NCBI GenBank assembly: GCA_958296195.1 | Contig: OY282455.1 | Coordinates: 3,829,809 to 3,893,808, forward strand | Direction of reading: 5' to 3' | Source: an uncultured Pseudomonadales bacterium | Lineage (GTDB): Bacteria; Pseudomonadota; Gammaproteobacteria; Pseudomonadales; Azotimanducaceae | DNA: 64,000 nucleotides | In this document: piece after piece, positions 3,901 to 6,033 of the stretch | How the letters are laid out: every line of letters begins with the position of its first letter | Numbering within the stretch: the first letter of the stretch is position 1 | Translations under genes and position numbers: made by a program | The notes under the pieces: model-generated | What the model saw: the letters and a program-made list of their open reading frames with translations, nothing else | What the model was told of the DNA's origin: nothing | Database searches by the model: none

Positions 3901-4524
3901 CTATCTGTACCGGTCCTGATGCTCGTTGAGCACTAGCGTCTCAATACCGTACTTGACGTCATTCAATTCAAGGATCGTTAGCCCGCCCTCCACATCTGTC
4001 CGGTTGGGATGATCTGGGCGCATCGCCAGTGCCGGTGGTGGGACATCATCGATTGACTTGATCAGAATACAGACGCCCTCCCCTGTCGGAAGGGGCTTGT
4101 GTGGGTTTTCGCCCCATTGATTCAGGTAGTGCGCCAAACCTCCGGCATCCTCGCCAAACACTTCGCGCATGCCCCAGGCCAGCTCGCGAATGGTCAGGGC
4201 GCAGAGGGCATGCAAATGGGGTGTCACACATTCCGGCAGGCCCGACCACGCCCATTCCCAACTGCTGCGGGCCTGCCGATCAAAACGGCCGCTCATGAAC
4301 GCCCGCCGCATCCAAGCACCGTCAACTCGCAAGTCATGGGACAAGCCCGCACATACCTTGTGCAGCATCAGGCTCATGTTGTCATCCGCCAGTTTTTCGG
4401 ACATGTAGGCCGGGCGCCGATTCAGGTTAGGATGCACAAAGCGGCTCATCGGCAGCAGCACTACCTCGCTTCGAGACATTTGCCGATTGACGCCGGCCAT
4501 GCGCTTTGCGCCGTGGCAAATCAT
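3901..4524 (-). CDS. hypothetical protein (207 aa), translationally coupled to the upstream NTase gene
   Basis: ATGA start/stop overlap at 4521-4524 with the NTase gene. I recognise no motif, and I did not find a HEPN Rx4-6H motif. Confidence 0.5.
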   Translation of the reverse strand: MICHGAKRMAGVNRQMSRSEVVLLPMSRFVHPNLNRRPAYMSEKLADDNMSLMLHKVCAGLSHDLRVDGAWMRRAFMSGRFDRQARSSWEWAWSGLPECVTPHLHALCALTIRELAWGMREVFGEDAGGLAHYLNQWGENPHKPLPTGEGVCILIKSIDDVPPPALAMRPDHPNRTDVEGGLTILELNDVKYGIETLVLNEHQDRYR

Positions 4525-5312
4525 GCTCTCTCGCCCTGTTCTCGGTCGCTGTCGCGGCGCTCCCGGATTGCCGCAATGGGCATGGCGGCCACATCTCGGC
4601 TGCGGAAGGCAGCTGCCATGCGCCTTGGAAGACCGTCAAGTCTGACGTCCCATCGAGCGTCAATAAGCCGCTTAGAGTCTTGTTGGTGCCATTTGTCAGC
4701 AGTGGCATGCAGATATTCAGCCATTGCCAGCGCATCCTCCTCAGACAGGCGATCCAAGGCATTTTGCATTACTTCAGGAACTTTTTGGGCACCAATGACA
4801 ATGTCGTACAAATCCCGCACCGGTGGTGGACGGTAAGCGCCAAGGCTGTGATTCAGCAGACGCCCCAATATTTTTCCGTCAAACACCTCCCCCACGGTGG
4901 CCGCCTGCACAGGAGTGCTGCAAACGCTCTCCGTAGGCAACCTGTCATCACTGACGAAAAGGTTGTCATTCAAAGAAAACGGCGTTCCCTGTACATCGCC
5001 GAACACAAGTCCAGAAGGCAAAACCTGGGCTGGTTGGCGGGATGGAACCCCCGCCAAGGCTAGCTGCAGGCGCACCCCGCCATCGTCAAGCATGTCCTTC
5101 ATGGCGCTGTAAGACGTGAACAAGTCAATGTCCGTGGACGCTCTGTGCCCCCACCGCGCCGCCAAAATGCTGCCGCCACCCATGACCAAGCGATGAACCG
5201 GAAGATGGCGGCCTAAATGCTCAATGAGGATGGCGAAGTGGGCCGCCATGGTTTTCGGCAGGGCTAGACCGCCGCTTTGCGCCGGGGGCTGGCCGATCTC
5301 CTCATCCACCAT
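4521..5312 (-). CDS. AbiEii/DUF1814-like nucleotidyltransferase (pol-beta-fold NTase)
   Basis: The motif LVMGGGSILAARWGHRASTDIDLF fits the G[GS]-x(9-13)-DxD minimal NTase signature. A downstream RDLYDI motif is also seen in AbiEii-type toxins. Confidence 0.65.
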   Translation of the reverse strand: MVDEEIGQPPAQSGGLALPKTMAAHFAILIEHLGRHLPVHRLVMGGGSILAARWGHRASTDIDLFTSYSAMKDMLDDGGVRLQLALAGVPSRQPAQVLPSGLVFGDVQGTPFSLNDNLFVSDDRLPTESVCSTPVQAATVGEVFDGKILGRLLNHSLGAYRPPPVRDLYDIVIGAQKVPEVMQNALDRLSEEDALAMAEYLHATADKWHQQDSKRLIDARWDVRLDGLPRRMAAAFRSRDVAAMPIAAIRERRDSDREQGERA

Positions 5313-5461
5313 ACTTCACCCTGAGCTCGTCACGCCACCGCACAACCCGTTCTTGCACAGAGGGCGCTGAACTAGGCGGAACCATATCACGAAGCGGTCA
5401 CTCGCAGCCACAAACCGGCATAGGGCTAGAGACCGCTGCGATGTAGAGATGAATTCGACTG

Positions 5462-5571
5462 TGGTAGCGACGGCAGGACTCGAACCTGCATCCTCCTAGG
5501 CGGTACACTATAGGTGTCAAACTAGTCGTGTACCTCGAACCTGGGGGCTTTGTCCGTTTAAGCTACGCCGC
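5462..5571 (-). ncRNA. tRNA-like element, not a canonical tRNA
   Basis: The minus-strand sequence is GCGGCGTAGCTTAAACGGACAAAGC...GCAGGTTCGAGTCCTGCCGTCGCTACCA. It has a perfect T-arm (GCAGG/TTCGAGT/CCTGC), a D-arm-like GCTT/AAGC stem with a GG loop, a 6-bp acceptor-like helix (GCGGCG/CGTCGC) and a 3' CCA. About 56 nt replace the anticodon/variable region, including a 7-bp GGTACAC/GTGTACC hairpin. Confidence 0.4.
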
Positions 5572-5601
5572 ATTGGTCGTGAAATCTCCCACTTTCCCCT
5601 G

Positions 5602-6033
5602 CTATCCTGAAAAACTTGGGTGAGAACGGAACTCTTCGGCTAGCTTTTGAAGCACCTGAATTAAACCAGTCAGATCAATCCGCCGAATTCGAGGACCTTT
5701 TCCATACTCTTCACTCGGCAAACGCCGAATCAACCCCCTGCGTTCGAGCTTCTTCAGCCACCGCTCAGCCGTACGCGTCGTTCCACCCATCCTATTGGCA
5801 ATTTGTCTAGGCCTCGGATAAGGCCATTGCTCTGGGGTCCACCAATACATAAGTACGTTTATAAGGACAACCATCTCCGCGGCTGATAAACCTAATCGGG
5901 CTTGGGAACGGACCAAAATGTCCGGCAGAGCTTGGAAGCCCGTTGCACCACCACTGACCGCTGAACCCCATTTGTCCCGCACTCGCGAGTTCGGGATAGC
6001 CTCAGAGTGCTGCGTTTCACCACTACCGTTCAT
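5602..6033 (-). CDS. small winged-helix DNA-binding protein (HTH_36/replication-protein-like wHTH)
   Basis: LSAAEMVVLINVLMYWW...PRPRQIANRMGGTTRTAERWLKKLERRGLIRRL resembles a wHTH. The start was set at the internal ATG (MNGSGETQ...) because the longer ORF runs toward the proS remnant. Confidence 0.55.
   Translation of the reverse strand: MNGSGETQHSEAIPNSRVRDKWGSAVSGGATGFQALPDILVRSQARLGLSAAEMVVLINVLMYWWTPEQWPYPRPRQIANRMGGTTRTAERWLKKLERRGLIRRLPSEEYGKGPRIRRIDLTGLIQVLQKLAEEFRSHPSFSG

Follow-up and report, generated by a model that had tools for sequence, protein, structure and literature searches.

In the AbiE and MenAT systems, a nucleotidyltransferase (NTase) of the DUF1814 family is accompanied by an antitoxin encoded upstream, AbiEi (COG5340) in the former and MenA in the latter. 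The family is characterised by four motifs, hG[G/S]x9-15DhD together with an arginine (I and II), a lysine or arginine (III) and +DxxD (IV), each of which is required for toxicity, and GTP is bound by AbiEii (Dy et al., PMC3985639). The best-supported mechanism of the family is extension of the tRNA 3' CCA end, by which MenT3 and MenT1 block aminoacylation (PMC7450476, PMC10435456). We analysed a DUF1814 locus within 64,000 nucleotides of an uncultured Pseudomonadales bacterium (contig OY282455.1, positions 3,829,809 to 3,893,808; hereafter the window), where an islet beside proS, the gene of prolyl-tRNA synthetase, carries four parts on its minus strand: a gene for a winged helix-turn-helix (wHTH) protein, a tRNA-like RNA, an NTase of 263 amino acids (aa) and a coupled 207-aa protein. 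An original prediction had proposed these four parts as a candidate module, which would be a new toxin-antitoxin or defence architecture with an RNA component. The locus is better explained as two juxtaposed units, since the NTase and its partner recur alone in at least five contexts and the RNA follows wHTH genes elsewhere without an NTase. We consider it probable that two independent units stand side by side here, a toxin-antitoxin pair formed by the NTase and its partner, and a wHTH gene with its tRNA-like RNA.

Although divergent, the 263-aa protein is a true member of DUF1814 with a confidently predicted Pol-beta-type fold, in agreement with the family assignment that had been proposed. 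It matches Pfam PF08843 (AbiEii/DUF1814) over residues 33-206 at 34.7 bits, the cut-off being 22.5, and a precomputed match to the same family exists for all 25 of its NTase homologues. The predicted motifs GGGS-x12-DID and RDLYDI hold across the family: all four motifs of the Pfam family are present, I and II reading MGGGS-x12-DID and IV reading RDLYD(I), and in an alignment of 15 homologues with identities down to 23% the residues G46, G47, R57, D61, D63, K147 and R166-D167-x-x-D170 are invariant, while R151 is kept in at least 90% of the sequences. An AlphaFold2 (AF2) model built with the family alignment (pLDDT 89.2) has its closest solved folds, by Foldseek, in JHP933 (4ok0/4o8s), class I CCA-adding enzymes, ANT(2'') and MenT1, at TM scores of 0.37-0.50; CCA-adding enzymes bound to tRNA minihelices are among these matches. 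The family profile found nothing significant among PDB sequences, which marks the clade as divergent, and PADLOC gave no match for either the NTase or its 207-aa partner.

Judged by its recurrence, the 207-aa protein is a genuine, conserved and translationally coupled companion of the NTase and represents a new family. The two open reading frames (ORFs) share 4 nt (ATGA), as had been predicted, and homologues of the partner (207-243 aa) lie directly downstream of an NTase gene, overlapping it or no more than 6 nt away, in unrelated neighbourhoods. These comprise a chromosomal site with a hicB gene about 3 kb upstream (L001, NTase identity 45%); a position directly after a GmrSD gene (L002/L003, 43%); the interval from cmr6 to a csx1-like gene within a type III-B CRISPR-Cas locus (L004, 39%); the vicinity of a restriction-modification system (L034, 29%), where the partner aligns to the partner profile with an hhalign probability of 99.9%; and a different chromosomal site for the closely related pair of L010/L011 (84%). 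The family is rare, with only 47 cluster representatives among 1.84 billion proteins in an exhaustive phmmer search, and, in line with the original remark that the protein has no recognisable motif, a Pfam scan of 35 members returned no domain, HEPN included, and the partner profile had no significant match among PDB sequences. Its conserved core (approximately residues 20-150) contains LLPxxRFDxPxLxRRP, KxCAGL, a (T/S)IxELAR helix and WLNxWxxxPxxPLP. The AF2 model of the partner is of low confidence (pLDDT 36) because only close homologues could be supplied.

Two further observations concern this family. A distant NTase (P0019, 26-29% identity) is preceded instead by an unrelated 165-aa gene, that is, in the canonical order; the encoded protein (L033 3507-4004) shares a short N-terminal motif, LPPLTAFDLPRNHERPP, with the LLPxxRFDxPxLxxRP of the partner family, the hhalign comparison with the partner family (A7) giving E 0.0011 and a probability of 21%, and the common motif may be an NTase-binding peptide. 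The CRISPR-embedded pair of L004 (5001-6436), in a Pseudomonadales metagenome-assembled genome of the OY282430.1 type, has identities of 39% for the NTase and 35% for the partner and a Cas_Cas02710/Csx1-like neighbour; it may be a CRISPR-associated accessory module, and the same genome also has a proS islet with a frameshifted NTase (L012).

The likely division of roles within the pair is indicated by the decay of the NTase gene. In two separate assemblies (L010 2123-2914, L011 165-956) a stop codon and an aspartate-to-asparagine change fall within motif IV (RD*YN), and in L012 (696-1486) a 1-nt deletion shifts the NTase frame at about residue 80. The partner ORF is intact beside the pseudogenes of both kinds, which represent two independent lesions, and the reverse pattern, a broken partner beside an intact NTase, occurs at no locus among those examined. 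An NTase broken twice with its partner kept is the pattern of decay expected of an NTase toxin and a partner antitoxin, and suggests these roles for the 263-aa and 207-aa proteins respectively. The pair (3901-5312) would then be a two-gene cassette of the toxin-antitoxin or abortive-infection type, in which the NTase, by analogy with MenT, would add nucleotides to the 3' ends of tRNAs and so block translation or, in the manner of AbiEii, would transfer a nucleotide to another target, and in which the antitoxin would be the downstream coupled protein, the reverse of the gene order in AbiE and MenAT. Gene order by itself also invites the opposite assignment, that the NTase is an antitoxin silencing a 207-aa toxin as in the HEPN/MNT systems of type VII; MntA-HepT has the NTase first and an overlapping partner second (PMC13000451), which matches the present pair and not AbiE or MenAT. 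Such a reversal is nevertheless very unlikely. Two independent losses of the NTase, opposite to the pattern it predicts, would have been lethal if the surviving partner were a toxin that the NTase restrained; furthermore, the NTase possesses DUF1814 motifs III and IV instead of the minimal MNT architecture, and the partner has neither HEPN nor any other Pfam match.

By the comparisons made here, the second unit contains a conserved, structured tRNA-like RNA distinct from decoding tRNAs, tmRNA and YrlA RNAs. It lies in the 289-bp spacer between the NTase and wHTH ORFs (5313-5601), where a tRNA-like element had been predicted, and is 111 nt long including its CCA. Positions 5465-5572 match the Rfam tRNA family RF00005 at 38.2 bits (gathering score 29), the E value being 1.8e-4 in a search of the whole window and 7.9e-6 in one of the region. 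Its acceptor stem consists of 6 bp, position 1:72 being mismatched, and it possesses both a D arm and a T arm (GCAGG-UUCGAGU-CCUGC), the discriminator A and an encoded CCA. The anticodon loop is replaced: 43 nt stand in place of 9 loop-region positions of the model, the helix extends by way of a UUCGA/G internal loop to a 7-bp hairpin, and there is no 7-nt anticodon loop for decoding. It is because of this substitution that ARAGORN misses the RNA; the program calls no tRNA in the window or in L005, L008, L009, L012, L013, L024, L027 and L031. No Rfam family other than tRNA matches the window RNA, YrlA included, and ARAGORN reports no tmRNA. Two candidate explanations of its origin and coding were rejected. 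A derivation from tRNA-Pro, suggested by the location at proS, fails in that only the T stem and generic features are held in common, and the idea that UUCKA conceals a CUA or CGA anticodon was dropped because the loop geometry is unlike that of a decoding tRNA.

Conservation of this structure is evident among its relatives, which score 37-52 bits against the Rfam tRNA model. In an alignment of ten RNA sequences fitted to the covariance model (A15), pairing is kept in 97.3% of cells, and both partners vary in 20 of the 28 pairs; shuffled controls had a mean of 12.9 and reached the observed value in none of 500 shuffles, and controls in which the pairing was slid gave at most 12 pairs. Between lineages, the two helices of the long arm differ in sequence throughout. 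Common to the copies are U8-A9, a D-loop GGA, the UUCKA internal loop after the 6-bp 'anticodon' stem, and the T loop, and eight of the ten end in NCCA. Single-sequence folding is less decisive: the window copy gives a cloverleaf with z = -1.7 only, and the copy of L013 has a different minimum-energy fold. Full-text searches of the literature found no description of the wHTH-RNA pair or of any partner encoded downstream of AbiEii, which does not prove novelty; the RNA family has probably been undescribed until now.

That the RNA is a dead pseudo-tRNA or the functionless remnant of an attachment site has some basis in the state of the islet, which is decaying, in the copy of the sister strain L005, where two stem-breaking substitutions abolish the Rfam match, and in the lack of compensatory change among close copies; moreover, tRNA genes are common integration sites. 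We find this scarcely credible. The same architecture occupies the same position after wHTH homologues of only 30-41% identity in distant taxa, the UUCKA loop and the CCA end are kept, divergent tandem copies occur, the repeats that bound the islet are proS sequence and not the RNA, and the covariation, with its 20 compensated pairs, largely refutes it.

The RNA is linked instead to the wHTH gene. The wHTH protein has the same length, 143 aa, as its homologues P0029 and that of L005, and matches the Pfam families DnaD_N, HTH_36 and MarR; PADLOC matches to it are weak and at chance level (E 0.007 or weaker). In a more distant genome, L008, a wHTH gene of 81% identity is followed directly by an RNA of 87% identity (Rfam 37 bits), in which all four stem substitutions keep their pairing. 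A covariance model built from close RNA copies (R1) found a match 115 nt long (32 bits, E 3e-7) on an IMG/VR phage contig (L013), directly behind the stop codon of a wHTH gene of 41% identity. The wHTH family occurs in 324 PLSDB plasmid records, and with a second model (R2) the RNA was located on four plasmids, none with an NTase there, each time directly behind a wHTH homologue (33-39% identity): two tandem copies on a Methylobacter plasmid (L024, NZ_CP091425; 64 and 73 bits), one on a Methylosinus plasmid (L031; 73 bits), one on a Spongiibacter plasmid (L027; 59 bits) and two in tandem on a Variovorax plasmid (L025; 27 and 37 bits). Five of these plasmid copies, all except the weaker of L025, are also reported by Rfam, at 39-52 bits and so above the tRNA gathering score, and only one of the five is called by ARAGORN. 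The RNA starts between -24 and +29 nt relative to the annotated wHTH stop codon, from which we infer that the two are co-transcribed.

Distant copies were reached by covariance models alone. Within 185,579 reference genomes an exact RNA pattern did not reach beyond the Pseudomonadales lineage of the islet, and it matched nothing in Joint Genome Institute (JGI) metagenomes or IMG/VR; in IMG/VR a looser pattern recovered nothing but ordinary phage tRNA arrays; BLASTN against plasmids returned the query itself only; and a wHTH protein-pattern scan of metagenomes confirmed no relative. The RNA was not found beside 14 other wHTH homologues (L007, L014, L021-L023, L026, L028-L030, L032, L036-L041).

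Several incidental observations were made at these loci. On three of the plasmids the locus tags skip where the RNAs lie (RS21350 and RS21345 in L024, NZ_CP091425; RS21585 in L031, NZ_AP022336; 43050 in L025, CP063168), and the source records probably annotate features at the skipped tags, possibly tRNAs or pseudo-tRNAs omitted by the PLSDB table. L024 also contains a group II intron domain (6511-6643, 77 bits) about 2 kb downstream of its RNAs and, across the junction of the tandem copies (4452-4573), a sub-threshold YrlA match of 34 bits (gathering score 69). In L007, a Rep3/ParA plasmid-like contig, R2 gives a weak match (9730-9841, plus strand; 12 bits, E 0.09) 4 kb from the wHTH homologue, with a D-loop UAAACGG and a GUUCGAG internal loop and no CCA end, which may be a diverged or relocated copy of the RNA. 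Inspected by eye, one ORF of the L013 contig appears to encode the large subunit of a terminase. Among GenBank phages, Escherichia virus TH38 (L014, MT446410.1, 'UNVERIFIED'; 2989-4153) alone has a wHTH homologue, and the adjoining ORF, again read by eye, would encode a ColE1-type mobilisation protein (MbeC/MobC-like), which suggests that this assembly contains plasmid sequence.

What follows the wHTH gene is variable. A co-oriented gene lies within about 190 nt of it, sometimes overlapping, in 11-12 of 18 sampled plasmid loci, encoding a DUF3800 protein twice, an Abi family protein once and hypothetical proteins otherwise, and genes for restriction-modification, Abi, Shedu, RES-Xre and serine recombinases abound around the plasmid loci. 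In the phage contig a SIR2-like ORF begins 35 nt after the RNA (Pfam 23.8 bits, just below the cut-off of 24.5). Since the wHTH head, with or without the RNA, is common on plasmids and often precedes a variable co-oriented gene, the wHTH protein most likely regulates the cargo that follows, which consists of variable and often defence-related cassettes. The second unit (5462-6033) would thus comprise a winged-helix gene and, at its stop codon or no more than about 30 nt from it, a CCA-ended RNA that would be released from their common transcript by tRNA-processing enzymes. Most economically, the RNA would be an intercistronic element that RNase P and the enzymes of 3' processing excise, and would serve to separate transcripts or to stabilise them; a tRNA mimic, acting as decoy or sensor, is possible. 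It is also conceivable, and we put it forward tentatively, that the RNA represents an undescribed mobile-element family processed from the wHTH transcript that heads defence cassettes, serving as a tRNA mimic, a decoy or sensor for enzymes whose substrate is the tRNA acceptor end, or as a processing switch for the cassette, in which case its adjacency to the NTase could be meaningful.

The two units separate in both directions. No wHTH homologue is present at the NTase loci L001-L004, L010/L011 and L034, and neither Rfam nor R1 found the RNA in L001-L004 and L010/L011, which these searches covered. Within the islet itself, the syntenic sister strain L005, whose NTase is 98% identical, has a segment of 1369 bp between the RNA and the NTase that encodes RmuC (419 aa, Pfam 292 bits), with a short GCGGTYT repeat at the breakpoint. 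The two changes in the L005 RNA are both G-to-A, breaking a pair of the D stem and the conserved T-stem pair G53-C61, and its NTase is intact; in L006, where most of the wHTH gene is gone together with two-thirds of the RNA from its 5' side, the NTase is likewise intact. Conserved linkage among homologues, which had been set as the test of the original prediction, therefore exists between the NTase and the 207-aa protein, and is lacking between the RNA and the NTase and between the wHTH protein and the NTase.

These observations bear directly on the proposal that the wHTH protein, RNA, NTase and 207-aa protein are one system, in which the RNA would be a decoy substrate, an RNA antitoxin or a specificity element. 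It has a clear biochemical appeal, since an acceptor stem with an encoded CCA is the very site extended by MenT toxins (PMC7450476), the RNA precedes the NTase on the same strand, by some 150 nt, in all proS islets (the window, L005, L009 and L012), and the fold neighbours of the NTase include tRNA-bound CCA-adding enzymes. We nonetheless judge it unlikely: the NTase and partner exist without the RNA in five other contexts, the RNA exists without any NTase in five other replicons, RmuC stands between the two in L005, and an RNA with broken stems (L005) or truncated (L006) leaves the NTase unaffected. Nothing in the distribution of the RNA supports a specific tie to DUF1814 NTases. The RmuC gene of the sister strain is missing here, and the adjacency of RNA and NTase in the window would accordingly be an accident of cargo turnover.

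Several points weigh against two independent units as we describe them. The covariation counts come from an alignment that was itself fitted to the model; the antitoxin role of the partner is read only from gene order and the pattern of pseudogenes; the close islet variants are a single lineage, and RNA and NTase co-occur in every proS islet seen; the RNA accompanies only about a quarter of the sampled wHTH homologues, making it an optional companion and not essential to the wHTH; and a scan of the region detected no sigma-70 promoter and no terminator, so that a single transcript may still cover all four genes. In a different account, the islet would be one regulatory operon whose head, the wHTH gene with its RNA, controls the NTase pair without having co-evolved with it, the RNA being a processing or insulating element. 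The placement of all four parts on one strand, with no terminator detected between them, is compatible with this, as are the co-oriented genes after plasmid wHTH homologues and the SIR2-like ORF of the phage contig. Its weaknesses are that the NTase pair occurs elsewhere without a wHTH head and that, in several RNA-positive loci (L025, L027), the gene after the RNA is divergently oriented. We regard this account as possible, if doubtful.

The setting of the two units (Table 1) was obtained from an ORF scan and alignments within the window, and the coordinates of the four minus-strand parts agree with the original placement; the proS repeats and the drop in G+C content confirm the islet. Two repeats of proS sequence, about 260 bp long and approximately 94% identical, bracket the islet, in which the G+C content is 0.54-0.60 compared to about 0.66 in the flanks. 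The ORF at 6057-6461 on the plus strand is a 134-aa C-terminal remnant of prolyl-tRNA synthetase, comprising its anticodon-binding domain; the proS duplication is also found in the variants L005 and L009, where it is annotated as an HGTP_anticodon fragment. In other variants the islet has been remodelled: L012 has lost the proS fragment and the 5' end of the wHTH gene, and L009 has an insertion of the insertion-sequence type after the NTase and partner. In the more distant L008 the same kind of element adjoins a degraded proS fragment. An integrase is absent from all islet variants seen. The islet is a decaying, integrase-less remnant with turnover of its cargo; in origin it appears to be either a relic or a cis-mobilisable element directed at the 3' end of proS. 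Elsewhere in the window, and unrelated to the islet, an ORF of 160 aa on the minus strand (10088-10570) encodes a run of 11-residue repeats, on the pattern of AEFRGEI or ADFRGAI, ahead of a hydrophobic C-terminus.

Table 1. Positions within the window of the proS islet, its genes and its boundaries
Feature	Position	Strand	Basis
Intact proS	2035-3750	+	ORF
3' end of proS, repeat copy 1 of the islet boundary (~260 bp)	3462-3723	+	Alignment with 6183-6443
207-aa partner of the NTase, putative antitoxin, outside named families	3901-4524	-	ORF, ATGA overlap, downstream homologues
263-aa DUF1814/AbiEii NTase, putative toxin	4521-5312	-	PF08843 match, motifs, AF2 fold
Junction at which sister strain L005 has an extra 1369 bp (419-aa RmuC)	5432-5436	.	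BLAST breakpoints
111-nt tRNA-like RNA with encoded CCA	5462-5572	-	Rfam tRNA model, covariance models R1/R2
143-aa winged-helix protein (DnaD_N/HTH_36/MarR type)	5602-6033	-	Pfam, homologues
Displaced 3' fragment of proS, repeat copy 2, within ORF 6057-6461	6183-6443	+	Alignment with 3462-3723

The locus defines a clade of DUF1814 NTases with a new downstream partner family, and so widens the range of architectures of the AbiE/MenT type. The clade recurs in defence islands and in a type III-B CRISPR-Cas locus, and the locus described here offers a compact pair for testing. The second unit ties a conserved, tRNA-shaped RNA to a wHTH gene of plasmids and phages; the RNA is seen by the Rfam tRNA model and almost never by ARAGORN, and if expressed and processed it would add a new case in which mobile elements mimic tRNA. 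More generally, the locus illustrates that finding parts adjacent in a single lineage says little about whether they form a functional module.

Among described systems, AbiE is close to the first unit in that its NTase belongs to the same Pfam family (PF08843/DUF1814) with motifs I-IV, and in that the pair is bicistronic, tightly coupled and found in defence islands. It differs in its antitoxin: AbiEi (wHTH plus a C-terminal domain) is absent, as had been predicted, neither the wHTH nor the 207-aa protein matching it in Pfam, NCBIfam or PADLOC, and the partner is downstream and homologous to no family. Nor does the islet wHTH protein take its place, being of 143 aa, encoded 289 bp from the NTase and absent at the other NTase loci. 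With MenAT the pair shares the DUF1814 fold, MenT1 being among the structural matches of the NTase, although at TM scores of only about 0.37-0.5; here gene order is reversed, the MenA genes lying upstream of their toxins, and the 207-aa family bears no relation to MenA. The pair stands outside both AbiE and MenAT because it lacks their upstream antitoxins, in place of which it has a partner of a new family encoded downstream. The best structural match is JHP933 of the Helicobacter pylori plasticity zone (PDB 4o8s, 4ok0; Foldseek probability 1.00, E 9e-5, TM 0.45-0.50), although identity is only 14-16% and its genomic partner is different.

For the second unit, the tRNA-like domain of tmRNA, YrlA and mascRNA are comparable as folds derived from the cloverleaf, with acceptor and T arms, that are expected targets of tRNA-processing enzymes. 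The islet RNA differs from them in keeping the four-arm cloverleaf and a CCA of its own, only the anticodon loop being exchanged for a hairpin, and in lying 3' of a wHTH ORF on mobile elements, with no Rsr/Ro or SmpB context. Regulators of the BrxR/CapW type, which have a WYL domain, are placed upstream of diverse defence systems, and the islet wHTH gene resembles them as another gene for a small DNA-binding protein that recurs before variable defence cargo on mobile elements; this putative regulator is of the DnaD_N/HTH_36/MarR-like type without a WYL domain, whereas the BrxR/CapW systems have no associated RNA.

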